From: Nemertoderma westbladi
Lineage: Eukaryota > Animalia > Xenacoelomorpha
Length of the DNA: 35,112 nt
Direction: 5' to 3'
Assembly (NCBI GenBank): GCA_032718475.1
Contig: JAUCBJ010005681.1
Coordinates: 1-35,112 of the forward strand
The notes beneath the pieces were generated by a model. It saw nothing but the letters and a program-made list of their open reading frames with translations. It was not told the DNA's origin and did no database searches. The translations under genes and the position numbers were made by a program. Position 1 is the first letter of the stretch. Each line of letters starts with the position of its first letter. Of this stretch, positions 6,499 through 34,994 are shown piece after piece.

Positions 6499-6582
6499 GA
6501 AGAACCCCGACTGTCTATTCCAGATCGACAGCTCTCTGGTAAAGCGCCAACATCATCTGTCGGTATCCGAGAGTTTCCCGTA

Positions 6583-9861: not shown

Positions 9862-10178
9862 CTGAAATTCTAGTTGATTAAGATATCGCGGCACCCACCG
9901 ATATACTTGAAAGACAAAATTCTAGAATCAGTGGTTAACATCCCCAGACATGTTCTGGAATAAATAGGTGCCCATCCTAAATATTAAATATTTAATAAAT
10001 ATTTACAACGTTTGTTATAACAAATGTTAAAATAGAGAAAAATATAAATTGAGTATGTTAAAATTTTAGATCCTCTAAAATTCTAGTCGATTGAGATATC
10101 GTAGTACTTACTGATACTCTTAAAAGACAAATTTCTGGAATTAAGGATCCTAGTTCCCAGACATGTTCTAGAATAAAA
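9862..10178 (+). repeat. Diverged direct repeat (~105 bp core, ~213 bp offset) in the pol-ORF3 spacer of element A
   Basis: aaattctagt.gatt.agatatcg...aaagacaaa.ttct.gaat...cccagacatgttct.gaataaa occurs at ~9862-9965 and ~10075-10178. Confidence 0.75.
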
Positions 10179-11000
10179 TTGTGTCTATTTTAATATCAAA
10201 TAATAAAATTCATGGGAATAAATTTTAAATTCATATCCTCTCATGAATTTGATAAATTGTCATTTTATACAATTTATAAACATTCCCAAAATTCCATTAA
10301 TTAATAGATCATGGGAGCGGAGATTCACCCTATTAAGTATATCAGTGTGAGAGAATCTCCAGTGTACAGTCAATAGACGATAAAATTCATAAAATCATGT
10401 ATAAGGGGAATATTGACAATTAAAGAATCACTATTAAATAGCATCCCAGATCTGTATGCATGAGAAATACCCTAATTCTACCGCTAGCTTTGCATAATGT
10501 CACCATAGTAACAACCACGCTAGAATTAGAAGTGAGTTAAAATAACAATAGAAAGCTTGCCCCATTGAATATCATGCGGAATAAATATCACCTTGCTAGT
10601 ATCTAGGGATACATAATAATAATGTGGCATTCTGGAAGGCCTTTGACTAACGGACAAATGGCCCTAATTTGTACAAATTGTGGCAGGAATGTGGAATTTG
10701 TGTATTTATAGGTGAATGTTACTACTAAAGTGTGTTTACAGTAGCGAGTCGCAGTTGTGAAAGTTACTCTGCATCTGTAGCAAGTACCTCCAGTATGTCC
10801 AAGCCCTTGGGACGGACAGTGGGGTGACTCGCGCTGGTTATTGTTGTCGTTGTGTAGCTACTACGTTGGCGAGAGGCACAGCAACGACAGTACATCAGCG
10901 CTGAGGATCTCATGCTGTCTGGGGGCATAGAGGGGGAGGCAGCGACGACCACTAGCCTGATTATTATTAACTCTAATATCGATAAACTCATATAGCAGCT

Positions 11001-14000
11001 ATGACTGAGTTGATAGAAGATGCTCTTGGTATCAGGGAGCGATATACCCTACCACTGCAAGCGTTTATTGATAGTTTGATAAGCGGCGATGCTAGTCAAC
11101 ATACGACGGAAGATGATGGCCATTATATCGAACCACCAATGTCAAAGGAACAGCTCAAGCGTGAATTGGACTATTGGAAATTCACCGCTCGCTATACGCA
11201 TCGTAATGGTATGTATATGGACTTCTTAACTACTGGTCATCATATCGATTTACATGATACCGAAAGTGTAGACACCGAAAGGGAAATGATTCTATTTAAA
11301 TATCATGCCCAGCAGAATCGGAATGATAAACTGAGAATTGAACATGAAAATTCTATTTGAAACCGGATCGAAAGAGAAGATGTTGAAGAACCGTATAAAC
11401 GTAGTGACTTCAACGAATATTTAGAATTCTTGAGAGAAACTTATCTCAATGTGGCTAGTCAACAAAATCTAGAAACTCGATATCCTCAAGGTATACATCA
11501 TAACCCTATGGTAGAACTCAAACGACTCTATTTTACTATGATGTATCTTACCGCCGATCGACCGATACCTGTTGTACCGGATAGCTTCGAATGGATGGAG
11601 GAATATTGTAAAACTGGAGAAAGATCACCTGCATTTTCCCTACAAGACGTGCGTCTTTGGTATTACTGCGATGAATGCCCTAGACCCAATCAACAAACAG
11701 AAAGACATAAAAATCCGCGGAGACGTTGCGCTAAACACAGTTTTACTCGCTATACTTATGGGAGTTTTGAGCAAAACTTATTCAACGTATCACCTACGCT
11801 CACTCGACTCAAACGATCCTTAAATAAACCTATGATCAGAGTTCCGGAATACTCGGTCAGACCTCCTCATTCCCTGGTGCGACCTCAGACTCTTGATCCT
11901 AATAGTATGACGGACCCTCCTGAGTTGTACTCATTGTTCAAAGATCTAGTGTTACCTAAACAATTAGTCGGTGGCACTCCGGTTGTGGGCTCTCTAGATA
12001 TTCGCCCATCCTTCCTAGCCGGATTGGGACATGGACATCTAATATCTCCGTTCAACCCGTATAATCGTCCCGGTTTAACTCCGATACAACCTGTCACCGA
12101 GGTGGAGGAAAGCGTTGTACGAAATGCGCTAGACGCTATTCGGCAAAAGATCAGAAAAGGAACCTACGATTGATTAGACAAAAGTAGCTCTTAACGTTAT
12201 CGAAATGTATGGAGTTGTCACTTATGATATCGAAGGTAGCGTTCCGGTTGGAGAACTGGGAACTACACGAATGATACACATACAAGGACTAGCTGGTTCT
12301 ACCCATGTATTTACTCGAGCGTGTTCCGACGTGATCGATTATTCTTTTGAGACTCTTACAGAGATACAAAAGAAACTCCGACATGGACAATTCGAACTCG
12401 CGCAGCGTTATGTTTCCGATACCGAGCGCAAACTGGCCATGGGTATAGATGGATCTATGCTACCCCAGCCAGTGCTCGAGATGCTGTTTGACGAGAGAAT
12501 CCTTAAAATTGGCTCAGCTGTTTATGGAGATCTCCAAAATGACTTCAGAAACATGGAGAATATCCCCTATCCTTTCGTAGACACCCAGCTGATTGCACCC
12601 TGGGCAGAAGGCCGAGGTTTCTTCCGAACCATGTATGCCAATACATCAAGCGGAATCAATAAAGTACAAAGAATCTCTATCAGACATCTTGCCTTCCAAG
12701 AATACGGATGGAATTTCATTGTTGGAAATCCTGTCAGTTATCAACAAATATATGGAGACCATTATTCTCGATTATATTTTGACAGACCATTAACTGCACC
12801 TGGAGTCTTCTATAGCTTTATGAGTGTTCCACTCCGTCCCTCATTAGCTATATACACTATCTTCGAGAATGCCGCACTTGCCGGTTGGCTAGCCGATGTG
12901 TGCAGTCGCACTATACGCGCTCATCCCTTAGTGCTTGGAACCTAACTCACCAAGCTAGATGAACACAATAAATTCATCCGATTCGAATGCTTTAGGCACT
13001 TTCTGACTCCGTTCCGCAACGTTGATAGTCAGTTCAATGACCACGCTTTGACCAAGCTCAGCTTAAGAGATTCAGCAGCTGAGAAGTTGGACAACGCTGG
13101 ATTTGCCATTTTTAAGGACGTTTGTATACAGAACCTACATTCATCTGTCATACAAAGACCCCGAATCCCCACAGGTTATTCTATTGTGGAAGTTCAAACA
13201 GTGGGTTCACTTGAGGAAACAGCTGTACCTATCTCAGCTATGCAAGTGGAAGTAGAACCAATTTGTTTGGAATCCGAAGACATTCAACCCACACCCCCCA
13301 GGAGTAGCGACAATGATTATGTGTTGGAATGGTATCAGGGTCCACAATGTCTCATGGCATATGATTATCGGCATGCCAATTACATTTCTAGGAAACATTG
13401 CCGATTATGTGCATCACGAGACCACTTTACCCCGGTGGACTCCAGCGAACCCTGCTCCTACTTTAAAGATCAACCTATTATGGAGATTTATTGTGCGTAT
13501 TGTAGACTCAACAATCTACACATCTTCGCCGTCTGCCCCTAATTTATGACTCAATGTCACCATTGTCAGTTCAAAGGACACGCAAGTTTTGATTGCACTT
13601 TCAACCGAGATCTGGAGAGCATAGACGAAATAGTTACCCTGCGCTACATCAGAATCACGTCACCGATACTATCCAGAACATGCGTATGAAGGAATCTATG
13701 CATTTCACCCATACCTCTTTGCATCCATCGAACAAAATTCTCGCATTCCCAGTTACGAACTGATGAAGCGTGTTGGCAAGAATATTTCATCTAAATATGT
13801 TTGCAAATATCTTAGGAATATTAATCCCAATAACCTGAATTCCTATAACTTGATCAACTTCATTCATCAAGATCAGGAATACGGCGACTTGTTCATAAAC
13901 TTGCATCCTGAATTACAAGAAATTCATAGACGACCCTATGAATATAAAGCCAGAGAACGCGAATTAGAGAGAACAATTAAACCGCGGAAATTTCTCACTA

Positions 14001-14296
14001 CACACAGTCAACCTACCGCTGTCGTACAAACGACCCATCAAGGACCGGTAAGAGCTGCCATCCTGAAACGAGCTCTAAAGGTTGTTCTCCCTCATTCCAC
14101 CGATGTTGACATCGATCAACCGGGTACCTCGACCGGCGGATACACCGACCGTAATCCAAAACCTTCTGATGCAATCGTATTGCACCCTTCACCCCGGAGT
14201 TATAGCCCTCCTAGTAAAGTGGCTCGCCCCAAAGAGAAAAAGACTCTTACTAGTCTCAAAAAACTTCGTAAACGCCGTTCACGAAAGAAGGACTAA
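11001..14296 (+). pseudogene. Accessory ORF3 of element A (~1,100 aa reconstructed): Cys/His N-region, DEDDy 3'-5' exonuclease, three zinc knuckles, basic tail
   Basis: ORF pieces join through single in-frame stops (11358, 12171, 12943, 13540) and about two frameshifts. Motifs: YDIEG (ExoI), LPQPVLEMLFDERILKIGSAVYGD (ExoII), FVDTQ, IYTIFEN (ExoIII-like); CRLCASRDH, CAYCRLNNLHIFAVCP, CHHCQFKGHASFDC. Confidence 0.82.
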
Positions 14297-14374: not shown

Positions 14375-14658
14375 TGTAAAAGCTTTTGCGGACATAACAA
14401 GTCATTTTCACGCAATGCGCAGAATACTCTAAAATAGCCCTAAAATTGTTCAACTAAGCGTTGGAAAGAAATTAGAACCAAGATGACGAAATCTGTCAGC
14501 TGATTCTTTGTGTACGTGGAGGTTTCTTTGTTCAGGCTTATTCAGCCAATCAGAGCAATTTTCCCAGTTATGCCAGTAGAGACCTTCCTGAGGAAACTAG
14601 TGCAATGCATTATGGTTATCGTTATTCTGAGAATTCGATTCATCTCAGAATTCTATAC
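14375..14658 (+). repeat. 3' LTR of element A (apparently truncated on the right)
   Basis: Matches 1184-1467, then switches abruptly to unrelated GC-richer sequence. There is no terminal CA and no full copy of the upstream flank GCCTC. Confidence 0.88.
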
Positions 14659-16105
14659 GCCGCGCACGGGCTGGCTTCGGCGGATGTAACTTCAGTACAC
14701 CAGGTAATTGGTAAGGGCTAAAGTCGATTCATAATCAAAAGGACATTTAAAATTGGCAGGTTAAACTGCTAAAGGTCTGAAAGCGCGAACAGCCTCGTAC
14801 AATCACCCAACCCATCGTCATTCCGTCAGGCCGCACACCACTTGTAACACCCTGTTGGCCGGTGGTCCTGTAGTACTCTCGCCGTCATCTCGTTTCGACT
14901 CGAGCTCCTCCCCCTGTACCAATCCGCGTTCCTCGTCCTCAACTGACCTGCAGCCCATGTGACAGATCTGGTGTAGCGGGCTGGTACTGCTGGGTCGCAG
15001 CCTCCCGAATATTTAAGCCCATCTCACTGTGTTCTCTCGCCTCCCGAACTTTAGGGCATCCCAAGTTTGCTCATCGTCGTCGCGTCATCGGTGATCTTGT
15101 CGTCAACATATTGTCATCTCCGGTGATGTTTTCACTGTTCAGCATAGTTTTCCACTAGGACAGGATCCCAGTTGGCCTGAGATCCCGGCCATTTGACTTT
15201 GGTGATGTTCCCTATGTGCGTGCTGGCTAATGCAATGGCTGACTGGTGGTTGGACTGACTGACTTGGCCGTAGGCCAGTGAAATAAAAGAGTTTGTTTGG
15301 TGAACTTTACTATTAATTGACTGACTGATGAATATGGTGTACCGGTAGTGATGATAGCACAGCATAGTGGAGGAAAACTATTTCTCCTCTACTACACTGA
15401 ATAAATGCCAACTGATTGCACAATACATGTGATCATTAATATAAAGGGGTAAATACATTGCCTACCTACATGCTAATACGTTTTAGTGACCTGTGATCGA
15501 TACACTCTAAGATGCCACATGCAGCCCTCCCATTGGCTGCCTTATCATGCCATAAACCTGCCTCCCTATGGCTTCTGCTAGACTCTGCCCACCGAGGTAG
15601 ATTGTTAGTCCACTGCCAGGCTAGCCCTATTGAATCATACCTTTGCTGGTATGCCCTATTGGATACCTTGATGGCCAACTTGGTAAATCGGCTCCCCCCA
15701 CACTTTGTGGGTTGGAATTGCTGAGCGGAATGGATCCGCTAACAAGACACAATCATTGCGAAAAAATCATTCAAGGGAAAATACAATTTTGCGATTTATA
15801 TTTATATCGCGACATTAGAGACTACCTGTACTTCACACATGATATCTCGTGAACGAAACAAGATATGTAAAAACTGTTTTTAGATTTGGAATCACCAATA
15901 CATTCGATTCAGATGGGATGGATATACTTAAAAGGATAATTTTGGTACATATTATTACTTTAAATAAATTTCAGTAATATTTGAACCCTCAATGATCTCA
16001 AATATGTTTGTATGTTATTATATAAAGTCGAATTTTATAGTTATCCAAAGACAAGCTACTTTCAACTCCTCCCAGCTTCTTAACCTTCTTAGAACAAATC
16101 CATCA

Positions 16106-17422
16106 TTAAATAATAATTATCACCTTACAGTACTTCACGTAATCATACACTTTGATCTTGTCCTTCCACTGACCAGTTAGTACACCTAATGCAACTCCAT
16201 TATCTGTAACTTGGCAATCGATGTGGCACTTCTTTAGTTCGGGGATACATTGTTTATTAAACTTAAGATCGCAAATATCCGATATAACTTGTATTTGTAA
16301 AGGGCTTATTGGTCCAATAACTTCTATGCTTCTTAACTTCCTACAATCTCTGACCAGAGAAACGAAGTCTGCTCTGATTGTTTCTCCATCTCCAATCTGT
16401 CTCGCCCAGCACCACCATATCCAATCTTCTAGACAGGTCCAGAAACTATACCGCAGATATCGCAATAGACTCGATACATCCTCGACTGTTTCCATTTGAA
16501 CATTCAATATCAACGTTGTCAGAGGAGGGCGCCCTTTTATCAATCGAATAACTGATTGGAAGTTAACTATGCCACTGAAAGTCAAAAACATATGAACTGA
16601 GAGGTCAGGGTTGGCCATTCTCCATGGGCTGCTGCTGCTATCATAGGCAAGAGGTTCAATATCAGCTGATTCTTGTGCATCTATACGCAGCATCAATCTT
16701 ATGAGAATGAGAGAAGGACAGTGAGTGAGAATTCTCTGTAAAACATCCCGATTCAGGTAATTGTACGTTATTCTCAAATTTGTCAACTTCCCTAGAGTGC
16801 TGAGTTGTCCCATAGCAGAGGGAAAAGGAATTTCTGTAGAAGCAGCAGAAGAGTCAATTAATCCAAATATTTCGAGGTTTCTAAGAGACCTGTGGTTGTT
16901 TCTGACGAGAATCCTTATAAGTTGGTCGGCTTCACTTAGTAGTTTTATACCGATACCATTTAAAGTTAGTTTTTCTAGAACTTTCTGTGAATCCATAAAT
17001 GCATTCAGAAGCTGATAGAACATGATGCTGTTAAGTTTTATGTCACAGTATCTTCCGCATAAAGTGAATTCTGTTAGTTGTGATTTCATGAGATGGATCA
17101 TTGATTGAATGAGGTGGTTTATAACTTGTTGCCGAAATATGAAACCGCCGAGATATATTGAAAACTTTTTCATATGGTGTCCGTATTGCCGTAATACTTC
17201 TATCTCATTACATTGTTCGCCATGGATGGTAATACTTCTCCTTCTCCAAAGACTTGCGTCTCTCTGGATCTCATTCCATCGACGACAGGTTTCGCCAGCG
17301 GAGAAACGATCGCGTTCTGGTAGGAACCTGAACAAATGGAGAAGTAGTTCTTTCGGGAGGAGCCATTGCCAATCAGACCCTTCGCTTTCATCGCTGGAGT
17401 GGTATCGCTCTCTATTGTTCAT
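16106..17422 (-). CDS. F-box protein with degenerate LRR-like repeats (438 aa, single coding exon)
   Basis: Uninterrupted ORF. LLPKELLLHLFRFLPERDRFSAGETCRRWNEIQRDASLWRR is an F-box. LxxLxL repeats follow (LEKLTL, LRNLEI, LTNLRI, CPSLILIRL, CRKLRSIEV). ATG at 17422 has a TTCCAG acceptor-like site just upstream, suggesting a 5' UTR intron. Confidence 0.88.
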   Translation of the reverse strand: MNNRERYHSSDESEGSDWQWLLPKELLLHLFRFLPERDRFSAGETCRRWNEIQRDASLWRRRSITIHGEQCNEIEVLRQYGHHMKKFSIYLGGFIFRQQVINHLIQSMIHLMKSQLTEFTLCGRYCDIKLNSIMFYQLLNAFMDSQKVLEKLTLNGIGIKLLSEADQLIRILVRNNHRSLRNLEIFGLIDSSAASTEIPFPSAMGQLSTLGKLTNLRITYNYLNRDVLQRILTHCPSLILIRLMLRIDAQESADIEPLAYDSSSSPWRMANPDLSVHMFLTFSGIVNFQSVIRLIKGRPPLTTLILNVQMETVEDVSSLLRYLRYSFWTCLEDWIWWCWARQIGDGETIRADFVSLVRDCRKLRSIEVIGPISPLQIQVISDICDLKFNKQCIPELKKCHIDCQVTDNGVALGVLTGQWKDKIKVYDYVKYCKVIIII

Positions 17423-17628
17423 CGTCGCTCTCACTGGAAGAGTACCGGTACATTATCTATAAGCTTTTGGATAATGAAATTAATTACTTAAAAGTAATCA
17501 ACATATTCATAGGTTACGAAACTGTTATGCTACTGTATATCACATAGGTATAATAGTATAATAGTTACATAGTTGTGATATTATAATAGTTACCAATCGT
17601 TGTTAATAATTGTGAAAAAATGTTTTAA

Positions 17629-18500: not shown

Positions 18501-19588
18501 GGCACTACTATGTTATGGGTACCCACTCTTTGACCATTTATTTGACAATGTTAATGGCTATTATCTTGAGGTTTTTTGTTTTAGAACATTAATGTCATCT
18601 TCTGTTAGACGTTAGCTATTTGGTTTTTTATGGTAGCTAGTGATTTCTTTTAGGTAGCTACTGTTTTTAAAATTACAAAATCAAATTTTTGGTACCTCAT
18701 TTTTGATCAATTTTTTGTTCAATTTCACCTTCTGAGAGAGGTTACCTATTATTTTGTATTAAGGTAGCTAGTGTTTTTAAAGGTAGCTAGTGATCTTAAA
18801 ATTACAAAATAATATTTTGGACCATGTTAATGGATATTATCAAGATGGCTTTTTGTTCTAGAACATACATTTTTTCTGAGAGAGGTTAGATATAATTTTT
18901 ATTATGGTAGGTACCGGTAGTGTTTATAAAGGTAGCTAGTGATCTTAAAATTACCAAAGAAATTTTGTAATGCCCCTTTTATTTAGACAATTTCCATATC
19001 ATCAATATATTCTCGCAATTAATAAAAATATAAATAAATCTAGTAATAAGTAAAATAGGCCTAAATAAATAAAATAAGTAAAAACTCTATTTTGACATCT
19101 GCCTATATTTTGTATAAAATATAAAAATATAGCTAGTGAATAATTACTAGCTACTTTGACTATCAAATAAAAATTACTAGCTACACCATGACTCATAAAT
19201 TATTCCATGCAAATATATAATTGAGAATTAAATTACCGGTATATCCTACATTTACTAGCTAATAAATAGTACTAGCTAACACAAAATCAAAAGTACTAGC
19301 TACCATCTTACTGTCAGAAGGTCAAATATTTGTTCTAGAAAAAAAAACCTCATAATAAAATACATTTTTACAAGAAAATCTTGGTAAATTTTTTTTTCAA
19401 TTTTTCAATTAAATTTTTTTTCACTAGCTAATAAAAAGTACTAGCTAAAACACAAAATCAAAATTACTAGCTACCGTCGTACTGGCAGAAAGTTAAATAT
19501 TTGTTCTAGAACAAAAACCTTATGATAAAAGCCATTTTCATATTAAACAATTTGTTTAAAAAGTGGGTACCCATAACATAGTAGTACT
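18501..19588. mobile_element. Non-autonomous foldback-like DNA transposon (Merlin-like MITE)
   Basis: Perfect 24-bp IR ACTACTATGTTATGGGTACCCACT (18504-18527 / 19562-19585). 8-bp TSD ACTACTTT (18493-18500 / 19589-19596). Left terminus GGCAC fits the Merlin GGNRM pattern. Long imperfect arms are built from GGTAGCTAGT / ACTAGCTACC units. Confidence 0.75.
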
Positions 19589-20535: not shown

Positions 20536-21206
20536 TGTGACGGGATCAGGGGATCCCGACCGGTTTATTTCGTTACGCGTCACCGTGTAATTGAGAAGAA
20601 GATAGTTTGTGGTTGTCGTTGTGATATTGTCATATGTTAACGCAAATATAAAATAACTGATATAAATATGATAGCACAGTTGAGCAAGGAATGTACAGAT
20701 AAATGTTAATAGATTGTACCGGTAGTAATGGTGACGTTAGGTGACGGTACGAAATGTCACTGGTGCCCACTGTGTGACTGAGATAACTGACCGGTAATAT
20801 AATTAACTGGTAATATATATTCACCCTTACTCTACTGTGGCCTTACTACCTAGTGGATGCTCTCCCTCGCCCCTCATTGGCTAACAACCTAATTCTCGGC
20901 TCCCACCTCTGTGGGAGTGCTTCCCCCCCCCCCCCCCCCCGCTGCTGTTACTTTCCCTTCTCAAGGGTGTCAAGTGTGTAGTGCTATGTCTAGTCTCCCG
21001 TCCTCTTGCCATAGTCAATTGGCCCCCAGTCCCAGTAGCTAGTTGGAAAAAGGGTTACATGACTATAGTACTTACTTTGATTATATTGGTTATATGATTA
21101 TATTCTAATGATTATTACATACGTACCTACTAATTGCACTTTTAATTAAATTTGCACTTAGGAGTTCGTATTACTTCACATGTGGTGCCTTCCAGGCATC
21201 CCCACA
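20536..21206 (-). repeat. Complete 3' LTR of element B (671 bp)
   Basis: Minus strand TGTG...CACA termini, immediately preceded by a PPT. 20536-20966 matches 30901-31318. Confidence 0.9.
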
Positions 21207-21217
21207 TCTCCCCCTCC
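21207..21217 (-). other. Polypurine tract of element B
   Basis: GGAGGGGGAGA abuts the LTR TG, a few bases after the ORF3 stop at 21223. Confidence 0.85.
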
Positions 21218-21222
21218 AAGTT

Positions 21223-23755
21223 CTAGTTCGCTCCTCCTGTCTTTGGGAACCATCTCAGTTCCTTCCCTTTGTCGTCGTCCTGTCTTGGTCGCTTTCTAGT
21301 TGTCGCCGCTCCCTTGTTCTTGTCCCCCTTAAGGTTCCTGATCCTTGCCGTTACTTCCCTACTGATTCCCGTCGTCGACTCCTTGGGCGCTGGTGTTATT
21401 AGCTCCCGGTATCGCTTCGCAGGTGGCCCCTCCGAATGCCCCTGCTGCTTCCCCCTAGTGGCGTCCCATAGGATCACCTTCATGGCCCGTGGCACATGCT
21501 CCGCCAAGAAATCTCTGAACTCTCCCCGGTTCTCTGGTGTCCACCTGTCTAAATACCTCTGTGTATTTATAACTCCGGCATATGACGCCGCCATTGACAC
21601 TTCCTGATAAGTAAACGGAAGTCTCCGTTTGATGATTTCCAGGTGGGCCTCCTGGTTAATATTAAAGAAGCCCCACCGGAATTCCTGGGCCTTCATCCGC
21701 TGCTGCGTCATGATGCCATCCAGTCGCATTGGCGTCCATAGTGCCCCCGGAAGTTGCACTTAGAACACCGGTTGTGCAACCATGGACACGCCCCCATCCT
21801 ATGACTCGACTCGCGGCAGTAGAGGCAACTCGTCCCATTCTGGAATCGGTACAAGCAGCTCCTTTCCTGGTGAGCAAGCCTCCCGCAGTGATCGCAGCCG
21901 AGTACCAATGCCTCCCGCCCCATGTCGTCTTTCGTCCCAAGCGATCTCCTCGGTCTATGGAGTTGCTGGTAAGCGAACTTCTGGATGTTAGTGTCCCTGT
22001 CCATGCCTATCTCCTCGTCTCGCCTGGGCATCGTCTCTCCGAATACTACCCGTGGTGCCGTTCCTGGTTGCTCGCCCAACCTGATGGTGCTCCCCGCGAA
22101 ATCCATCGCCAGCTCCTCATGCACCCAGGCCCGCTTGCCGGGTCTATCCCAGAAGGCCCTCGCCCCGCTGGCCGTCACCACTCTCCCGCCAACCCAGTCC
22201 GTGTCTGAGTGGCCGATTCTCCCGATGGGCGGCATCTCTCCGAACTCGTCGTCGTCCTCGTCCTCCTCTGGCAGTGGCTCCAAACCCGGTACTGTGTCCC
22301 TTCCCATCTTGGCTCTCGCCCGTGACTCTCCATCCTTCCAGTTCCCCTGGCCTTCTCTTCGCGAAATCACCCTCGGCGCCCGCTGGTATGGGCATCGTCT
22401 GCAATCCCGATGTTGACTGTTTCAGCGATCCTTCCGCCCACCCCAATTCTCGCCCTAGAGACTCGCCCGAACTCCCTGATGTCCAGTGTAGATCGTCCAA
22501 GGCCGCCTGGGCCTCGAACCCATAGCCCTCTCCTCTAGCTTCCGCCTCTCTTTCTTCTGCCTCCATCCTTTCTCATCTAGCGATTTCTTCCAATCGCTTC
22601 GCCTCTCGTCTATCCGCCTCTAGCTGCTCCCACATCTGATATGGTGTATCCACCTCCCTGTCTACTAGATATCAGCAGTTATAGTATACCGACTCGCCCT
22701 TCAGCCCCGGGTGGTCTACCAGACCCTCGAAAGCCACTTTGAAGGCTCTTCTGTAGTTCAGGGGTGATCCCAATAGCAGAAATGCCATTGGTTGTCTTTC
22801 AATAACCACAGTCATGAATAGGTTTAGCAAACCTATCATTATCCAGTCCTCCTGCAGGATATATCGCTTCTGATATATCTTTATCGCTCCTCTCCGGAAT
22901 TGATACACCCCTTGCTTCCCCGGCCTCGCTCCCCACTTCAGCGAGTTCGCCAACTCCGCTCCATACTCCTCCCTGAATTTACCCCAGTCCACTGGCTTGT
23001 GGCATACGAGCCCCATTAGCTGGCCCATCGCCACCGCTCCACAATGGCCCGTGTTCTCTACTAGTCCCAACTCGGCTGGCCCCGACATAGCCATGTAGAC
23101 CGTTTGCGTGTCCAGGAGGTTGGGGGTCTCCGGACTGATGATCCTCTCCGCATCGTCGCGGATCACCGATCCCACCTTTATCGTCGACTTCTCTCTTACT
23201 ACGTTCTGCACCGCCCTTGGCAACCGGTTTAACTTCGGCCCATTCTTCTTCCCATACGTTCCCAGATCGAACAGGAATATATCCCCATTTGGCGCGGCCA
23301 AATGCAGGAGTATGGTTCTGGCCGACCCCGCCGACCCTCTTCTTGAACCTTCCTCGTCTTCCACGGTCCCTTCGTTGTCTAGGACCATGTATCCTCCCCT
23401 GCTGACGGACTCTACAAACCTCTTCCAGTCCTTTTTCGGTGGTTCCCTTGGATACTTCGGTATCCCGAACTTCGCCTCGTCTCCCTTTACCACGTAGTGG
23501 AAATGCTCGAAGATCGCGTTGTCTAGCGATGGTGTCCCGTAGGTCCCGACCAGCCGCTGCTCGTGCACCTCCCTGAAATGGTCCTGCAGCGCTCGCGCCT
23601 TGTGACCCTTCTCTAACCGCTCGTAGTATTCTTTTGGTGAAATCTACCAGTATCTCCTTTCCTCCCAACTCCGCCTTTCTCTTTCTAACAAGTTTCTCCG
23701 CCATTTCGAACTCTCCCGATCGCTCACCTATAAGGGGGCTTTTACCAAGGCTCAA
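21223..23755 (-). pseudogene. Accessory ORF3 of element B (~840 aa reconstructed): DEDDy 3'-5' exonuclease, acidic linker, three zinc knuckles, basic tail
   Basis: MVLDNEG (ExoI), LLHLAAPNGDIFLFDL, LPRAVQNVVREKSTIKVGSVIRDD (ExoII), NLLDTQ, QKRYILQED (ExoIII-like); CDHCGRLAHQERSC, CLYCRESSHRMGACP, CSKCNFRGHYGRQC. Broken by TGA stops and frameshifts. Confidence 0.85.
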
Positions 23756-24112
23756 TATAAGTGAGTGATGTAGTTAGGATGGTCTGTACGGTCCGATAAT
23801 GGCCTATCTCTCTCTGAACGCTAGGTTATTGCCGAATTTTCTTATTCTACTCCCTAAAAGGTGCCAAATTTCATAAATTCCCTAATTTTGTCAGTTACTT
23901 TTATTATGTTCTAGAATATCCTGCCTACTGTTACCATAATTTGTCTAATTTTGATTTTAATATTTTATTTTAAATCCTACAACTGTATCAGTATCTATTA
24001 ATGGATTATTTATTTTAATCCCCCTTCTGACCTATTCTACGGGCCGTGCAGTACAGTAGTATGTCTCGTGCGGCCTATACGATCTGTCCTGCTGTACCCA
24101 CGTGCCCCCCTC

Positions 24113-24925
24113 TCACTACTCACTACTAACTCTACTAACTTTTACTAACACACTAACTCTTACTAACATTCTAACTAACTTCTACTAACTCTTACTATGT
24201 ACCCTCTTACTAACTCTTCTACTAACGGTACTACACGTACCGTTTTACTAACTCTTCTACTAACGGTACTACACATACCCTCTTACTAACTCTTCTACTA
24301 ACAGTACTACACGTACCCTCCTACTAACTCTTATACTAACTCTCACTAATGGTACTACCATTAGTAATTAATCTTACTAACTAACTCCACTAACTCTTAC
24401 TAATGGTACTACGTACCCTCTTACTAACTAACTCCACTAACTCTTACTAACGGTACTACGTACCCTCTTACTAACTAACTCCACTAACTCTTACTAACAG
24501 TACTACGTACCCTCTTACTAACTAACTCCACTAACTCTTACTAACGGTACTACATACCCTCTTACTAACTAACTCCACTAACTCTTACTAACGGTACTAC
24601 GTACCCTCTTACTAACTAACTCCCCTAACTCTTACTAACGGTACTACGTACCCTCTTACTAACTAACTCCACTAGCTCTTACTAACGGTACTACATACCC
24701 TCTTACTAACTAACTCCACTAACTAACGGTACTACGTACCCTCTCACTACTAACTCCACTATCTAATGGTACTATGCACCCTCTTACTAACTAACTCCAC
24801 TAACTAACGGTACTACGTACCCTCTTACTACTAACTCCACTAACTAACGGTACTACGTACCCTCTTACTACTAACTAACTCTCTAACTAACTTCTATCTG
24901 CCTACTTACTTACTACGTACCTACT
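24113..24925. repeat. CTAA-rich minisatellite (47-bp core unit, shorter variants at the edges) inside element B
   Basis: Unit TTACTAACTAACTCCACTAACTCTTACTAACGGTACTACGTACCCTC repeats with a 47-bp period from ~24374 to ~24720. Confidence 0.92.
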
Positions 24926-25069
24926 ATGTACTATCACCCTCCTTTCTCTTACTCTCTTTCTATTATTTTTATTGTTTTTATTTTTTTTATATTTTGTGTG
25001 GGAAGGGCGTCTCGCCCTCAATCCCACCCCCTCAGTCCAACACTTGGATGACTAAACTCTATGAGCCCC

Positions 25070-26570
25070 CTATCGTAGTACTAGGTAAAGTGCTGCTCCG
25101 TATGCTTCCAATGACGCATCGGAGAACATGTGTAGATCCAGATCCGTCATGTCCCCATCCGGGAAATACACGCGTGGCATGCTGTACGTCCCCATCTGTT
25201 CTAAACTCTCCGTCCACTTGCTCCATTGCTTGCTGATCTCTTCCGGGACCTCTGTATCCCATTCGTCCTTTAGCTTATATACTTTCTTAAGTATCTGTTT
25301 CCCCGTGACTAACAGTGGGGATGCTAGGCCTAGGAGATCGTATATCCTTGCTATGTATGATACATAGCCCCTCTTTGTGTGGATGTCCGCGCCCTCCTGG
25401 CTCAGCTGATACTTGAACTCGTCTGTCTCCCGGTTCCACACGATCCCTAGTGCCTTCTGGTGGGACTCTACTCGTTTGTCCGCCATGTTCTGTCCCTTGG
25501 CTGTCGTGGGGTTATTCATGGTCGACTCTGGCCTCCTGTCCTCTATGGCTTTCATAAACTCTTCTGAGCTGGATTTGAACTTGGTCAGGTTAAACCCGGA
25601 TCCCTTCAGGATGTCGCGAATCTCGCGCCCTGTATCCAGTAGTTCTTTAACCGTGTTTCCAGACTCCATTCCGTCGTCTACTTAGAGGCCGCGTCGAATC
25701 ATATTGACGGCTTTGGCGCTATATTTATCCTCTTTCCCCTCTACTGTATCCCTCACAGCCACAGTCGTCGTAAATGAGGACGACTTAGCCCCCATATTCT
25801 GCACCACCATCTTGTACATCGGTATTGTCGATGGTTCCTCGTCACCGTTGTACCATAGGAAGCGCTGGCTGTCACTATCCTCCTGCGTCACACGGACTTG
25901 GTTGAACATGCCTTCAATGTCGCAGGTGAAGGCGTGCCTCCCGTTTCTGAATCTCAGTAGGACCTTGATTCCTGAGTTATAGATATTGGGGCCTTCCAGC
26001 AGGTAGTCGTTTAGGCATTTGCCGTTGGTCTTAGCCGATGCGTCAACTTCCATCCGTAATTTACCTTTCTTTGGATCTAGAGCCACGTGAAGTGGCAGAT
26101 AATAGGTCCTATCCGTGTTCGGTTCGTCGACCGGTAACTCCACGGCCCATCCTTTCTCGATATACTTCCTTATCGTCTTGTGGATGTACTCATCCTTTTC
26201 GGGGCTCCGCCTCAGCGTTTGCTTCAGTTTGCGGAGCCTCGTGAGTACCATTCCCTTGTTATCTGGTAGCGGTAATTTTGGTTGTTTCCACACCATCCCT
26301 ATGGTGTACTCCCCCTCGTCGCATTTCATCGACTCCTTTACGCTTTGTATTGCCTGTTTATCTTCTACCGAGGTTCCCACCTCGGTCTCTATCAATCCCT
26401 CAAAGTCCTGTCTGAGTAGTCTCCTGAGCTGCTCCTCCGCTCCTTCATCTTAAATCTCCCTCATAGTTCCCGCGAACATGCACCCTGATGTCTCCGACAT
26501 CCTAAACGGAATCTTGGTTCTAATTGAGCCGCTTATCGTCCACCCGAATGGTGTTAAAATTGCCACCTGG
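25070..26570 (-). pseudogene. pol: Protease tail, reverse transcriptase and RNase H N-terminus of element B
   Basis: AILTPFGWTISG; YYLPLH...KLRMEVDASA...LNDYLLEGP...LLRFR...DIEGMFNQV...QRFLW; catalytic YVDD reads *VDD (TAA at 25682-25684); KALGIVW, TKRG...YDLLGL, LHMFSDASLEAYGA. Confidence 0.93.
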
Positions 26571-29500
26571 TCACGCTGTCTGTCTTCGTCTTGCCAATAT
26601 CTGCAGTTCATGGTCTGATGAAGTGCGTTCGTGTGTAATTGGCATTTGTTGTTTGGATTATAGCCGTCCTTATACAGTGCGCTGCGTATCGCACTTGCAT
26701 TCGTACCTAGATCCCTACTATTCTTATTGTTTGGTTTCAGCCTACTGGGCGTGTTGGGGTTATGTTTGTTTATGTTGTTATTTTTCCCCTGTCCGCTCCA
26801 TGGTGTGGCCCTACCCCCGGCTACATGTGGACTAGTAGTCCCCTGCATCGCCACGTATGGCAGCGATTGTCTGAGCTTTGGCAATGCGTTCGCCGTGTTG
26901 TGTTCTGGTTTCGGCCTGTTATATTTGGTCTTTGGCCCCTTTCCCAGACTATCCTCGCTATAGACTGGGTCTGTGATCAATTCGGCTTCGTAGTTGAGGA
27001 AGATCGACATTTCTTCTAGGCGTGGTTCCGCACGCTTCTTCTCACGGGTGGAGAAAGCGATTTTTCTCCATTTATTGCGCAGCCAGATCGGCAGCGCCTG
27101 CGCTATCGTGGTGATGTTATTAGATGTGTTGAGTTCATATGGCGCGTCTAGCATCTTCAACACGATCAGTGCCTTCTCGACTTTGTTCGCAAATGTCTTT
27201 ATGCTAACGGGGTTATCCTGTAGGCCACCCGATGTTATACTCATATATCCTATTGATAGTGATATCTCAGAGTCTGCCGGATGATCTTGGCTGGGTGCCC
27301 GTACTCCCTGTCCAGGGCCCGCCATGCAGTCGTGAAGCCACCCTCGATGCCCTGGTACTGCCTCACGATGTCATACTCTGGGCCTCCTGTATATACCTTT
27401 AGATATTTTAGGCACTCCGCCTGCGTCAGGTTCTTGGTCAATATCTCGTTGCTGTACATGCGACGGAATTGCAGGTATTCTACCAGCCTACTTCCATCGA
27501 ATTTAAATGGCTCCACGGGTGGTAGCTCGATCCTGGTCTTGAGTGCATCGATTAATGTAGCCATTCCCATCGCCTGTGCTTCCAATGGGTTCGAAGGATG
27601 CTGTACAGATTCTCCCGTTGGGTGCGGTCCGCCCATCCTGTTCGTTGCTTTCCGTTGTGTCGGATATACCATTGGGGGTAATGGCCCCCTCCATATTTCC
27701 GTGTCGCAAGATCTGTTCTCGTCCAGGGGATTCGATGTTCTCATTCCTGTTTGAATATATTGTTGATATTGCAATGGGGGAATGTCACCCTGTCCCCCCC
27801 CCCCCCCCAACGATGGTATGTTTTGTACTGGGGTTGATGTTAATATATTGGGGCCCATACATCTACCTGCAATATCCCCCTCAACCGGGTATTTGCATAT
27901 ATTTGTTCTTGGTTGTTTATATTGCCTATCTGCAATATCCCCCTCAACCGGGTATATGTTATGTCCCTGCATGCTATAGTCATACTTTTGTGCTGGTACA
28001 GGTATAGGCCTATCCACTTCTTGCCTACCTACTGGTATGTACTCCGCAACTTCTGGATCTAATCCTGCCGTTCGCGCTACCCTATCGCCTACACTATCTC
28101 TCCCAGCATGGCCTATAGTATGTGCAGTAAGGCCTACAGTATGTCCTGCGCTCTGCATGTGCCCTTCCGGACCGAAGTTTAATCTTCTCGAATCTCAAAT
28201 CTCCCTGCGACTACCGTTATCTCGATCGGCAGCTATATCCCCTCCACTTTCGATCCCCTCCACTATTCTCGTCCTCGTACCGGTACGCCCTGTACCCTTC
28301 TCTCGGCGTATAGTACACCTCGCCAGGTTGCGTCTCTCCGGGACGACGGCAATCTCCCAGAGTTCGACCCCACCGCCTCTCCAACTCCATCTCTACTACC
28401 GACGGCTCGCTATCCGTCCTCGCTCTCCTGTCGCTCGGAACGACACTTCTTCTACTCTCTTCTCTCCTTCTTTCTGCAGTGTAGCATCCCCGCTCGTGAG
28501 ATCTCTCGTCGACCTCCCAGTTCAACTCCACTGTTTTTCTTCCCTCTTCTGACTGGCCTCGACATCTTGTCGCTCGCCCTCTCGTGACGCCACGGTCTCT
28601 CTACCCGGTCGCACGCCGATGGGGATATTCCTAATCCCCCTATTACTCTCCATCGTCGGGTGCTGCGGTTCACCTAACTCGCCCCGCGCATTGTCCGCCG
28701 ACGCCTGTGGGACACTCTCTGCCCCCCCCTCTTGCCGCTAATCTCTCGTTGTGGGGCTCCTGTAGCCCCCCCCCCCCCCCCACTCGCCACCTATCACTTC
28801 ACTATCTCTCACTTCGCCTCTGCGTCCCTCTCTAGTCGACGCACTTTCCCTACTGTGGCTGGGTCTATTCACCCCCGCCTCTCCATCTATCACTGCGTGG
28901 CCTGGAAGGCTCCCGTCGGGTTGACTCACCCCCACTACTCCCTGCGTATTAATTACGTGGCCTACCAGGCTCCCGTCGGGGTCTCTCACCCCGTTACCCC
29001 CTGCGTACTGATTATGTGGCCTGGCAGGCTCTCGTTGGCCGGGCCACCTACATCTGCCGCGTTTATATTGATAGCACCAGTATCAATATTATTTTCTAAA
29101 TTATTTAAATTATTAGAATTATTCTGTGCTGAATTCGGATTATTATTTAAATTATTCTGTATATTTGAATTAGAATCGGGATTATTTTGCTTGTTTGAAT
29201 TAAAATTATTATTTAGATTATTTTGCGTATTTAAATTTAAATTATTTGAATTATTTTCTACATTTAAATTAGGATCGTTCGGATTTAAATTACTATTATC
29301 GGGCAAAGTATTATTTCCTGCAATGAAAGATTGATTAGGGTTATCTACTACGGTACTATTAATATTGACGCCTTCTAGCGTATTATTATTACCCCCCCCC
29401 CCCCCCCCCCCCCCCGCCCGTACGGTTACACCAGTCTTGGGTCGGTCGTCCGGTCCCTGTAAGTGGGGTATTAACAAAAGTTTCCATTACTTCTGGCTCC

Positions 29501-30833
29501 TCGTAAACACTACCCGAGCCAGCCTCACTCTCTGATAGCCCCAACTGCGCCAGTTCTAATCGGCGCTTCTGTTTGGCCTGATATTGCATAAGCCCCCTCA
29601 ACCGGGCGTGCATGTCATCCCGCACATGCTTTCCCGTTCTCTCTCTCTCCCTATCCTCTCGCAAACTCTGCTCGGCCAACTCCGCCTCTCTTGCAATCCT
29701 CTCAAGCCGCCTCGCCCCATGCTCTTTTCGCTCGCTCGCCCCTCTCGCCTCATGCTCTTTACGCTCGCTCTCCTCTCTCGCCTCACGCTCTTTACGCTCA
29801 CTCTCCTCTCTCGCCCCTCTCGCCTCATGCTCTTTATGCTCGTTCGCCTCTTTCGCCTCTTGCTCTTCTCGCTCCTTTCCTTCCCTTATTTCTATCTCCT
29901 CACACTCTCTAAAGTTTCTCGCGACCCTCTCAGCCCTCTCTTTATTCTCTCTCGCCAGCTCTCTCTCTCTTTCTAACAACGCAGTTCCCTCTTCCAACTG
30001 CCTCTCTGGTCTAGCGCCACCATGTCTAATTGACACGCCAGATCTATTTCTAACACCCTTCTTGCTTTTGCGGAGGATGTAGCGGACTTGTCGGTCGTGA
30101 CGGACCCCCGTCGCCCCTCTGTCCTACTAACTTTCCCCCGCTTTCTGGGGTTCTCGCTAACTGACGAGACCGAATCCTCGGGGTTAATCTCGGATTCGCC
30201 TTCATGTGGGTCTGCCCAACCCACTAACTTAATTCCCCTAGCATCCACTAAATACGGCCCTATGTACACTACTTGGGGCTCCATTATCCCGGACTGCCAC
30301 AGTTCCAATAGTTCGGTGGCGACCCCTCTCGCTCTCTCACTGGCTAGTTCTCCCTGCCCGAAACGAACTAGGTATCTGAAATGTTTATTCGACTCACCTA
30401 GTCGCTGGCTCAACTTCCCTTGGTCTACCTTTGCTCCCTCTCTGGCCTCCCTGAGCTGTTTCTTCGTCACGTTGTAGGCTCGTCGGAGCCGATCACTGGT
30501 TCCGACGTCCTCGTCGCCGACCTCTCCTCCTCCCCTCCTGGTTTGGCGTCGTACCGGCGGCCCCACCGTCGCCGTTCCGGGGGGCTGTCCGTCGCCCTCG
30601 GCCTGTGGCTGGCTGGCGACATCGGTACTTCGACCGCCGTCGTGCATCGACTCGTCCCCTCGTTGTAGTAGACGGCCGCCCTCCGCTTGGGCTGCCGGAT
30701 CGTCTCTCTCCGGCGAATCCGGCGTTGCGGGTCGATACCGTCGTGTTGCGGCCTCACGGATCATTTCGTTGGTATCGTCCGGAGTCCGTGGCGGTGTTCT
30801 TTCTCCCTCTAGGTCTCGGGGCTCTGTGCTCAT
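26571..30833 (-). pseudogene. gag: Disrupted gag of element B
   Basis: ATG at 30833, 67 nt inside the 5' LTR. Contains INPEDSVS, an E/R coiled coil, ELPPVEPFKFDG...LKYLKVYTGG...AWRALDREYG (DUF1759-like), ALPIWLRNKW and one surviving knuckle CQLHTNALHQTMNC. Several frameshifts. Confidence 0.85.
28890..29040. repeat. ~60-bp tandem repeat (about 2.5 copies) in the gag region of element B
   Basis: GTGGCCT...AGGCTC(C/T)CGT(C/T)GG recurs at ~28897, ~28957 and ~29016. Confidence 0.75.
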
Positions 30834-30900
30834 CTTTTTTAACTTTTTTCTTTTGGTGGCTGGCAGTCACAGTTTAGCAGTGGTACTCGGAATTTCGTAC

Positions 30901-31318
30901 TGTGACGGGATCAGGGGATCCCGACCAGTTTATTTCGTTACGCGTCACTGTGTAATTGAGAAGAAGATAGTTTGTGGTTGTCGTTGTGATATTGTCATAT
31001 GTTAATGCAAATATAAAATAACTGATATAAATATGAAAGCGCAGTTAAATGTTTAAAACAGATAAATGTTAATAGATTGTACCGGTAGTAATGGTGACGT
31101 TAGGTGACGGTACGAAATGTCACTGGTCCCCACTGTGTGACTGAGATAACTAACCTGTAATATAATTAACTGGTAATATATATTCACCCTTACTCTACTG
31201 TGGCCTTACTACCTAGCGGTTGCTCTCCCTCGCCCCTCATTGGCTAACAACCTAATTCTCGGCTCCCACCTCTGTGGGAGTGCTTCCCCCCCGCTGCTGT
31301 TACTTTCCCTTCTCGAGG
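30901..31318 (-). repeat. 5' LTR of element B, missing the first ~240 bp of U3
   Basis: Matches 20536-20966 with scattered substitutions, a poly-C length difference and one rewritten ~15-bp patch. Similarity stops at 31318. Confidence 0.9.
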
Positions 31319-31416: not shown

Positions 31417-33147
31417 CCCAATATTGCTGAAAAACGCCACTTCCCAACTTTATGGGGATGGTGAGGCGGAATTGAATCCGCTCACACTAGCTAGTGTTTT
31501 TCCAAGTATCTATTGTAATGAATTTAGGTAAATTTAGATTTTTGGTCGTTTCCCAATCTCCCCTTGCATTATATTTCACTGACATTATATTTCACTTTTC
31601 ACTGATAAATTAATAAATATAAGCCAACTTTACTATGGATATTCATAATAATAATATGACTTGTTGGTATTTTTAGTTTTTTTTATGCCGTTTCTATCTA
31701 ATTTAATGATGCTCGCATGGCTTTTGGTGAGGTCAGTGTTAATGCCACTAGTGAATGGCATTTACCTCGCAGGCTCGCCCCATATTGTTAATTTACTTCT
31801 GCCAGTGAATCATTATGTTATACGGCAAGGGCCATGCAGAATAGCTCTGATTGGCTAATACCCATTTGCATTCAGCTTACCAGCCCCAGCCTATATATAG
31901 TATAGCATTATATCAGTTGGTCAGCCTAACTATTGAAGATTTATTAGTTAACAGCTCACTAGCTGTTAGTAGATTTGTGGGTCGGAATATTCATGTCAAT
32001 TCGTGACATTGCCGATGTCAATTTGTGATAATGATTCGTGTTATGTCGATTTATTGTTTGCCTATTAATTAATTTGTTATATCAGTTGAATTATTGCGAT
32101 TTATGTTATTATTATGTTATCGATAAAGATAAAGAGAATGGATTCAAGTCATTCTGTTGTTGATTTAACGTTGGTAGCACAATAACATTGAGGTTGGTGG
32201 TCTATAGACTGTACGGTATTGCAACTCATCGCACTGGGGTGTGTGTTACAGTATTGTCATATGACGCCTAATATTAATAGCAAACTAACATATTTTAATA
32301 CGTGCACAAAATTAATTCCTGTGACATCGGTATCTCGGATTGTCAGTTTCATAAATCCGACTTCCATAAGTCTCGAATGAATACAGTTTTCAGTTAGACA
32401 TAAAGACGTAAGCAGTCCAGACACACAACTTAAAGGAACTATTTATACGGGGTTTCAAATCTGTTTATAGTAATGCCAGTTTTATATGCAACAATAAATT
32501 ATTCTACGAGTACAAGTAACGGTTACTAGCGCCCGTTTCTTGTATATACAGCTGGTCGTAAGTTTAGGCTCATTATTTGCAAAATTGAATTGTAGCGCTA
32601 ACAGTCAGTTTGTAATAATAAGACTTATCAATAAATATCATTATCGTGTCAATCTGTCAATCCTATTAAGATGGTCATTTTGCTTAATGTGAAATATATA
32701 GCTGCAGTACTGCTATATTGCTGAACCATAGGATAATACATAAAATTATATGAATATTGAATATACTGCAACATATATTTTCTAGAATCGCGTATCAGAG
32801 CAATTTCTAAGAAAAGAGTATATCTTTAGGTAAAAATGGTATTATACATCAATTATAGAACATTTTTTTAAAATTATACGATTATAGTTTTAGCTAGTTT
32901 CCGTAGCAATATGCGAAAATTAACAATAAACATACAATATTGCAATGTTCTAGAGTTAATATACGGAAATAATAACCTGAAGCAAATAAAGCTGAATAAT
33001 CACTGATGCCGTTCCAGAAGCGAATTAACCTATATAATTACCGAGGCCGCAGGCCGAGGTTATTATATTATGTTAATTTGGTGAAGAATAAGGCAGAAGT
33101 GATTTTTACAGTTTTATTCGCTTTTTCCACAGATGTAGTTATTCTTT

Positions 33148-33482
33148 TCGAAGAATCTACAGTTTGGATTTCCATAACGGAATATCCCGAAAGTATTTTG
33201 GGTCTCTGCAGAACAGCGGAATGCATATTATTTTGAATGCAAACGTCTATAAATATAGCGAATCCGGCACTACCTAGTTTCTCAGCGGCGGAGTCTCGCA
33301 GGCTGAGTTTGGTCGGTGCGCGATCTTTAAACTGACTATCAACGTTCCGAAACGGAGTCAGAAAGCACCTGAAACATTCAAATCGGATGAATTTGTTATG
33401 TTCATCTAATTTTCGCGAGTTTAGTTCCCAGGATAAGTGGATGGGAACGTATGGTTCGACTGCACACATCGGCTAACCATCC
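33148..33482 (-). pseudogene. Isolated fragment of an element-A-type accessory ORF3 from a sister family
   Basis: GWLADVCSRTIRSHPLILGTKLAK/LDEHNKFIRFECFRCFLTPFRNVDSQF...TKLSLRDSAAEKL aligns codon by codon with 12883-13210. Confidence 0.92.
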
Positions 33483-34994
33483 AGAAAGTTTAGAAACACT
33501 TTATAATTAATGAAGACATCCCTGTTTAATATTATAAAATAAATTCGATGTAAAGAACATCATCAACGAAATTAGAGACTTTTATCATGAACGTGGAAAA
33601 TTCTAAGTAAAAAGTCAATCTTTCACATCTACGTATCTACGTTCTAGAAATGTTATACAGTAGCTAACTGTAAATACGTTACATGTATTATTTATCAAAT
33701 TACAACACCATGCACTTGAATGTTGTTGTCTTATTTCAGTAGTTATTACTGTGCCAAAAGGATTTATGTTTTAGAATAAACATTTGACCTTATCTGACCT
33801 GACAGCAAGATGGTAGCCAGTAATTTTGTGATATTGGTACTAGTATATATAGTATGTATAACCAGTACTAGTACAGTATGTATGTATACAGCACATTTGT
33901 GTTTATTTATTGGGTATTGTGGCATTTTATTATGTTCTAGAACATTGGTGAATGTTCTAGAACCTTACTAGAAATTTTTTTTATGGTGCTCGTTTTTTTT
34001 ACTAGCTACTATTTTTTGAAAATAAAAAAATATAATATTGTTTTATAGTGTTTTTTTTATATTGGTGAATGTTCTTAAACCTTAATATATATTTTTTATG
34101 GTTGCTAGTTTGTTTTATTACAGTAGGTGGATAAGTGTTCATATTCGGGACATGAAGTCCCTACCTCACACAACACTCTCAGCAATTTCTTGATGGGGAT
34201 TGGGTTGTACGAGAAACATTGTGTTGATTTTCAGCACTTCCAGTGGACCAAGTACATGAACAGGAGAACAAACTATTAAAAGGCGATGGAAGAATAATTG
34301 GGCTAACAGAAAACCCATAGTTATTGCAGCATTGGCTTCTTGTAGCACCTGATTAGTGCAATTTTGTAACAACGAATGATTTTATTATACTTATAATTAG
34401 TAAGAAATGAAATGGTATATAAGACAGAATGATTTTCAAACTTTTAATTTAAACATCTATATATATTCATTTAATTCACCAAAAAGGTATTTAAATTATG
34501 TACAATAAAATATTCGGGATATTATTAAAACAGGAGTTAGCACTTTAATAATTTTAATATTTAAAAATAAAACTAATAGTAAATAAAATATGTTTGTTTT
34601 CCATTTAACCCCGAGCCCAATGACTAAGGGATATTTTATTCTCGGGACAATCGAGCAGATGGTATATTGTTGCCACGCCGCCACATAGATCGCAAATACA
34701 ATCTTCATTAGGCGAATGAATGATAAGAGGAGTTCTTACAATATTTATAGTGGAACCCATGCATGGCAAATCGAGTGTAATACATGTAACCTCTTTAACT
34801 ATTTACAATTATTATAGCTGAGCTGTAAAATGGACTGAGACATATAAGAAAAATGTATGTATTCTTTTCTATCATGGTCAACTCCCGTATATGGGGCTAT
34901 GGTTACCTGTACCGGTACATTCCAAGTCGATTAACTAAAACTAATTTAATAAGCTGTAGGGCCTCTCTCTGGTGTGAAAAACAAAATATATTTG

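Follow-up and report, generated by a model that had tools for sequence, protein, structure and literature searches.

BEL/Pao retrotransposons (Belpaoviridae, Semotivirus) share a DUF1759 capsid, the domain order PR-RT-RH-IN, LTRs and a purine tract, and their third genes have been described as env-like only (ICTV profile, PMC8742986). The accessible text of a 2011 survey (PMC3118150) contains the word "exonuclease" 0 times, and the available portion of PMC6431247 describes an AIR1 motif in planarian Burro elements. DEDDy exonuclease genes have been found in other retroelements: the accessible sections of PMC5408684 report DEDDy ORF3s, with the motif DEED, in the rotifer Juno and Vesta elements, whose lineages are called retrovirus-like, and in Terminons. 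Those sections put the number of ORF3 gains at two or more, describe exonucleases of this kind as previously unreported in retrotransposons, and leave ORF3 function untested. A cellular enzyme, TbRND, the mitochondrial RNase D of Trypanosoma brucei (PDB 7C42), is described in the available part of PMC7797062 as an RNase D nuclease joined to four CCHC knuckles with affinity for U-rich RNA, a combination its authors call "very unusual"; the knuckles raise RNA binding and cleavage, and overexpression of the enzyme depletes guide RNAs. We found no precedent for an exonuclease gene in BEL/Pao elements in the full-text literature, which was mostly open-access and did not include Repbase or GyDB. The Cer elements of C. 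elegans reportedly contain extra domains, and an earlier BEL/Pao precedent is therefore possible.

The window analysed here is a 35,112-nucleotide contig of Nemertoderma westbladi (JAUCBJ010005681.1) that contains two LTR elements, A on the plus strand (1184 to at least 14658) and B on the minus strand (31318 to 20536), lying tail to tail with a single-frame F-box gene between them. Each has a third gene, ORF3, in the env position between pol and the polypurine tract, and the product of both ORF3s very likely combines an exonuclease-like domain with knuckles. The features are as follows.

1184-1467, plus strand: A 5' LTR, the part common to the 3' LTR (9 differences in 284)
3377-9198, plus: A gag-pol, with capsid, triple Cys-His box, protease, RNase H end and integrase, lacking reverse transcriptase and most of RNase H
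11001-14296, plus: A ORF3, ~3.3 kb, with 4 stops and 2 frameshifts
12178-12942, plus: A RNase D-like domain
From 12223, 12523 and 12577, plus: A nuclease motifs (D-x-E, motif II Asp and DTQ, respectively)
From 12808 and from 12850, plus: two candidate motif III sites of A
13399-13596, plus: three A ORF3 knuckles, the first irregular (CX2CX4HX9C)
14375-14658, plus: A 3' LTR, shared part, downstream of a purine tract
20536-21206, minus strand: B 3' LTR, TG...CA, ~670 bp, its start placed from the polypurine tract
21207-21217, minus: B polypurine tract, as read from the sequence
21223-23704, minus: B ORF3, ~2.5 kb, with 2 stops and ~3 frameshifts (candidate ATG at 23704, stop at 21223)
21223-21720, minus: B ORF3 post-knuckle region and basic tail
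21726-21896, minus: three B ORF3 knuckles, CX2CX4HX4C
22675-23643, minus: B ORF3 open stretch, 323 aa, with the RNase D-like domain
From 23382, 23163, 23115 and 22866, minus: B nuclease motifs (D-x-E, motif II Asp, DTQ and Y-x3-E-D, respectively)
23760-25030, minus: AT-rich spacer of B, from pol to ORF3, containing 11 copies of a 47-bp tandem unit (24372-24876)
25070-26449, minus: B reverse transcriptase and start of RNase H (PF05380), the remaining RNase H and integrase being absent
26450-30866, minus: B gag region, with DUF1759 capsid and one knuckle remnant, most of the nucleocapsid and the protease being absent
30901-31318, minus: B 5' LTR remnant, a 92.6% match to the last ~430 bp of the B 3' LTR
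33104-33494, minus: fragment C, an isolated piece of an A-type ORF3 with 74% nucleotide identity to A

Both elements are BEL/Pao copies with internal deletions. Pfam matched the DUF1759 capsid in both (E 2e-11 in A and 7e-7 in B), PF05380 in B, and the integrase zinc finger and DUF5641 in A, and the triple Cys-His box of Gag is complete (3/3) in A and reduced to a single remnant at a deletion in B. A search with the A integrase returned 698 proteins; the 120 listed are Pao-type polyproteins with 34-43% identity, the highest values among them (42-43%) belonging to BEL/Pao proteins of fish and other contigs. On a reference profile made from the 62 longest polyproteins among these listed matches, all A and B pieces fall in the order PR-RT-RH-IN. 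A lacks profile positions ~718-1214, which hold reverse transcriptase and most of RNase H, while positions ~354-625 and ~1118-1781 are missing from B, so the two copies have no pol region in common and the capsid is their sole shared part. The elements resemble known BEL/Pao members in capsid, domain order, LTRs and purine tract, in the triple Cys-His box and DUF5641 integrase of A, and in the Pao reverse transcriptase/RNase H region of B, whereas their third gene, unlike known ones, is not env-like. The A and B capsids are 21% identical over 199 columns, and mean capsid identity to 60 of the 62 references is 18% for A and 21% for B; by this measure, A and B are separated as widely as unrelated BEL/Pao families. 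Both elements have two LTRs, each pair matching in part, and a polypurine tract. As had been predicted, the LTRs of A are unrelated to those of B (no match between them by self-BLAST) and the two differ in base composition (ORF3 GC content of 0.43 in A and 0.56 in B).

Read across its breaks, ORF3 has the same layout in both elements, in which the RNase D-like (DEDDy) domain is followed by three knuckles of the CCHC type and then by a basic tail. Its frame is broken in both window copies. The motif pairs quoted in the original prediction are all present in the sequence, the first A motif spanning a stop and a frameshift, and the basic tail before the polypurine tract is evident as described, with 14 (A) and 9 (B) Lys or Arg residues among the last 30. 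A purine tract followed by TG lies 5 nt downstream of the ORF3 stop in B and ~70 nt downstream in A. We ruled out that ORF3 is an env gene, as it has no hydrophobic segment (top 19-residue hydropathy, 1.46). The longer N-terminal region of A ORF3 contains a C-x2-C-x17-C-x2-H motif (11665-11750, plus strand) for which no counterpart was seen in B.

Pfam exonuclease models did not match either ORF3 at E values up to 10, and searches of the PDB to the same limit returned no match to either domain, TbRND included, although TbRND and an Rrp6-type RNase D-family nuclease were matched when E. coli RNase D was the query. In the ESM Atlas, PF01612 was the family found for both B (25 of 30 matches, 0.93) and A (0.88), and A matched the NCBIfam RNase D model TIGR01388 at E 0.0014, far under its curated cut-off. 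With an RNase D-type profile built from 29 bacterial PF01612 domains, A scored 11.1 bits against at best 0.7 for 200 shuffles of A, and B scored 4.2 bits against at best 3.5 for 200 shuffles of B, a thin margin. Profile-profile comparison with the RNase D type gave probabilities of 32% for A, 10% for B and 91% (E 1e-6) for A and B aligned together. Predicted models of the two domains had pLDDT values of 33 and 28, and a fold search with them gave no match.

The D-x-E of motif I, the motif II Asp and the DTQ of RNase D are present in both A and B. B aligns with bacterial enzymes on motifs I and II and A on motif II, motif I of A having been placed via the A-B alignment and not by MAFFT with the bacterial rows. 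Neither domain has the canonical motif III, Y-x3-D: B has Y-x3-E-D at the aligned place, and A has Y-x3-E-N in pairwise register with B, while MAFFT with the bacterial rows puts A motif III at an earlier site that has no acidic residue. The active site of A and B was read as D-E-D-E. Judging by spacing, the Gln of DTQ would correspond to TbRND Gln164, which binds a 2'-OH according to the accessible part of PMC7797062. We consider it somewhat more likely than not that the ORF3 product is an active nuclease.

The preprint bioRxiv 2025.08.03.668247, in its available part, describes large animal RNA-binding proteins with an RNase D-like domain, as in ORF3, and shows that acidic residues can be intact where catalysis is not needed (Egalitarian) and that Exd1 works through an inactive domain. 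ORF3 might likewise encode an RNA-binding adaptor in which catalysis is unimportant and which binds element RNA for export, transport or packaging. The non-canonical motif III would be consistent with such a protein, as would the same preprint's account of Egalitarian as a protein of ~1000 aa, close to A ORF3 in size, in which an RNase D-like domain lies centrally and which recognises signals in I-factor RNA. However, the D-x-E of motif I and the motif II Asp have been kept in both families over ~80% divergence, and B retains E-D at motif III. We regard an adaptor without catalysis as unlikely. Egalitarian and Exd1 also differ from ORF3 in that they are host genes for which the available text describes no knuckles, and no sequence match to them was found with the A+B profile.

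The knuckles provide the clearest likeness between the two ORF3s. Knuckles 2 and 3 of A and B are identical at 13 of 37 positions (E 1e-6), and their score was reached by 2 of 1000 shuffles in which C and H were kept in place. The ORF3 knuckles differ from the Gag knuckles, as originally stated, scoring no higher than -3.7 bits on the 62-polyprotein profile, which includes Gag knuckles; these profile scores and a comparison with the Gag regions ruled out that they are a duplicate of the Gag knuckles. The best solved-structure match of an A+B knuckle profile is yeast Air2 (E 0.003), so part of the likeness between A and B may belong to a wider type, and the B knuckles match those of TbRND weakly (E 0.098).

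The original prediction that the ORF3s align motif by motif is borne out by significant alignment for knuckles 2 and 3, but not for the exonuclease domains as a whole or the post-knuckle region. Direct comparison of the exonuclease domains gave E 0.075 by BLASTP and 0.4% by hhalign, and the A-B score was reached by 37 to 486 of 500 shuffles across six settings (55 of 500 at the standard local setting). The N-terminal half aligns globally (2 of 2000 shuffles reach the score) and the C-terminal half does so weakly (103 of 2000). Alignment of the post-knuckle regions was not significant (100 to 430 of 2000), and comparisons of the N-terminal regions, linkers and tails were either not significant or matched the wrong frame. 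In the joint alignment the two exonuclease domains are 15% identical, lower than the 20% and 17.5% that A and B share with the best bacterial enzyme. In pairwise register, and by eye, both domains have a Glu at motif III, and their stretch from R-P to the Tyr of motif III is 12-14 residues longer than in RNase D. Two unnamed eukaryotic clusters are among the top three ESM Atlas matches of both nuclease domains. One has a length of 213 aa and 81 members, the other a length of 214 aa and 83 members; they are from Basidiomycota where the source is known, and they may be other mobile-element exonucleases.

We consider a single origin of the two ORF3s likely, mainly because slot, order and tail are the same and because the stretch before motif III is longer in both. 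Whether ORF3 was then inherited along with pol and not swapped is closer to an even question, and we lean slightly against it. The competing account, to which we give a little less credence still, is that the ORF3s were captured independently, or that one old module was swapped between BEL/Pao lineages, such that the likeness is of a generic DEDDy and Air2-type kind and defines no lineage. It would explain why exonuclease and tail have no significant direct alignment and why the knuckle pattern also occurs in yeast Air2. According to the accessible sections of PMC5408684, rotifer DEDDy ORF3s were gained at least twice, are shared with Penelope-like elements and have been exchanged between unrelated retroelements, which makes an old swap a live rival. 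Agreement of A and B in slot, order and tail argues against independent capture or exchange, as do the longer R-P-to-Tyr stretch and motif III Glu seen by eye, the two Atlas clusters shared at the top for both domains, and the A-B knuckle score of 77, which exceeds those of all 70 Gag knuckle regions tested (65, 66).

Trees of the gag-pol sequences bear on the same question. We used 32 of the 62 references, hand-picked to span the clades of an earlier tree; the references had been chosen by likeness to the A integrase and so form a biased set. On the 199 shared columns, A and B have long branches and no free tree unites them as sisters, as independent capture or exchange would predict, and the placement of B varied between runs. 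Yet the best tree constrained to hold A and B together improved on the free one by 1.25 log units (p-AU 0.53). An A+B clade is therefore allowed, being neither shown nor rejected by these alignments, and the proposals that ORF3 is a vertically kept module and that it defines a lineage are accordingly unproven.

Both ORF3s were under coding selection while their families were active. The B family is abundant, with 17,747, 32,493, 17,927 and 319 contigs on B in four DNA runs (three samples) and coverage of 30/30 bins; loose contig ends near the B pol deletions look like diverged sequence. Within the open nuclease frame of B, the 40 best-supported of 164 variable sites are split 4/7/29 by codon position, and 29 of the 40 are synonymous, against 34% expected for random transitions (p ~1e-6). 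For the A type, the comparison available was that between A and fragment C, which differ at 29, 11 and 54 of 120, 120 and 121 first, second and third positions, respectively (p 3e-7). The GC3 of each ORF3 is close to that of its own pol (0.38 vs 0.42 in A, 0.67 vs 0.62 in B), and the A-B likeness of ORF3 (15-22%) is in line with that of the capsid (21%). Among 1.84 billion protein representatives, the A+B profile found no relative, its sole match being a repetitive protein that we dismissed. No relative was found for the B domain among longer proteins or for the A domain among similar-length proteins, and none for ORF3 in metagenomes, viral contigs, phages or PHROGs.

The absence of a relative in this set, together with the agreement of GC3 with pol and of ORF3 divergence with that of the capsid, upholds the original view that ORF3 is old and not a recent host-gene capture. 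It is also conceivable that ORF3 is a passenger fragment of a host gene with no role for the elements. Both window copies are indeed broken, and the accessible sections of PMC5408684 report no clear departure from neutrality for the rotifer ORF3s. Third-position bias in two families, GC3 values that follow each pol, contigs that cover ORF3 together with the rest of B, and the failure to find a host-like relative leave the passenger reading largely refuted and, in our estimate, highly improbable. A selected ORF3 with an RNase D-like domain and a triple knuckle is thus real in two very distant BEL/Pao families.

The function proposed below is modelled on TbRND, which, like the A and B ORF3s, has an exonuclease followed by a CCHC array in one protein. 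In contrast to ORF3, it is cellular, has four knuckles 28 residues past the nuclease and a canonical motif III Asp, and is reported from trypanosomatids in the available part of PMC7797062; A and B have three knuckles ~150-260 residues away and extra N- and C-terminal regions. The layout that they have in common with TbRND is likely convergent. The RNase D-family nuclease and Air2-like knuckles (E 0.003) also recall Rrp6 together with Air1/Air2, although those are separate host proteins and no HRDC domain was seen in the A and B ORF3s. Rrp6 and Air1/Air2 are partners in TRAMP/exosome nuclear RNA surveillance. As described in the accessible sections of PMC5408684, the rotifer Juno and Vesta ORF3s resemble those of A and B in occupying the env slot of an LTR element, in encoding an RNase D-like DEDDy domain and in lacking a transmembrane segment, and differ in that a Cys-His-Cys motif is given with no mention there of a triple knuckle and in the motif DEED as opposed to D-E-D-E. 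This comparison is one of descriptions; sequence searches with the A or B domain returned no Juno, Vesta or Athena DEDDy ORFs.

Our best explanation, which we put at roughly 40% as a whole, is that ORF3 is an element-borne accessory gene, selected while the families were active, that probably goes back to a single ancient source in A and B, and that its product would be an RNase D-type exoribonuclease, working 3' to 5' on RNA supplied by the knuckles and blunting host RNA silencing. Since ORF3 begins 1.3-1.8 kb behind pol, past an AT-rich spacer, we infer that the protein would be made from its own or a spliced transcript. The basic tail may take it to the nucleus, where, in the manner of TbRND, the knuckles would hold the ends of single-stranded RNA and pass them on to a two-metal site. 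The enzyme could act on small silencing RNAs or the precursors of these, or on decay tails carried by element RNA. A separate gene, the lack of a hydrophobic segment and the basic tail together make a trans-acting nuclear protein more plausible than an enzyme of the particle. Most BEL/Pao elements do not have this gene, and the selection on it hints at a conflict with the host, for which reason counter-silencing is favoured over both processing of the element's own nucleic acids and a binding-only adaptor. We propose counter-silencing as the job of ORF3 tentatively.

The same enzyme could instead act on the element's own replication intermediates, trimming primer or cDNA ends or proofreading, and so allow long elements. 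A is at least 13.5 kb long despite ~500 missing pol positions and B is 10.8 kb despite ~930, both above the family range of 4.2-10 kb (PMC8742986), which is descriptive and not defining. The ORF3 knuckles resemble nucleocapsid, the accessible text of PMC7968707 links the nidovirus proofreading ExoN to genome growth, and that of PMC5408684 suggests 3'-end processing for the rotifer ORF3s. Against an action on replication intermediates, the extra length of A and B is largely ORF3 and its spacer, ORF3 stands apart from Gag-Pol and ends in a basic tail, whereas cytoplasmic particles are the assumed site of reverse transcription (PMC8742986), and RNase D-type motifs suggest RNA over DNA. We consider this role rather improbable, less so than that of an adaptor. 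An extended form of the counter-silencing reading, in which a deep, undescribed BEL/Pao lineage of >13 kb has kept a nuclear TbRND-like enzyme since near the root of the group and destroys host small silencing RNAs with it, is unlikely; were it true, an animal LTR retrotransposon would encode an enzymatic silencing suppressor.

The function of the rotifer DEDDy ORF3s has been open since their first report, in the accessible sections of which no selection is described (PMC5408684). The rotifer Juno and Vesta elements are gypsy-like; A and B, which belong to a different LTR group and lie far apart within it, both show selection on ORF3, and the B family is abundant. Because the role of the knuckle array has been solved in TbRND, ORF3 comes with a concrete biochemical prediction, and the B nuclease domain sits in one natural open frame (22675-23643). 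With small RNA as its target, ORF3 would provide an animal transposon with an enzymatic counter-defence of a rare kind; with element cDNA as its target, it would be a proofreading aid to reverse transcription.

Several further features of the window were observed. No TGG-type primer-binding site directly follows the B 5' LTR (30860-30900, minus strand), and B priming may be atypical or the site may have been lost; the first 18 bases after this LTR start and end with GTAC. The LTR match of A ends after 284 bp and is followed by GC-richer sequence (14659-15900), which may be an insertion or the unmatched remainder of the LTR. Purine-rich tracts between the pol remnant and the spacer (9285-9300, plus, in A; 25020-25040, minus, in B) are possibly older or central polypurine tracts. 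The B spacer contains nested tandem arrays of 38, 47 and 40 bp (24108-24921), the A spacer contains a 73% duplicate (9843-10202), and an Asn-rich low-complexity frame lies in the B gag region (28986-29486, minus). The F-box frame between the elements (16106-17452, minus) runs uninterrupted for 448 aa, carries an N-terminal F-box (E 1e-12) and leucine-rich-looking repeats, and is probably a host gene, intronless in that stretch. At 18504-19585, inverted repeats of ~70-160 bp flank ~0.9 kb with internal repeats, an arrangement like that of a small non-autonomous DNA transposon.
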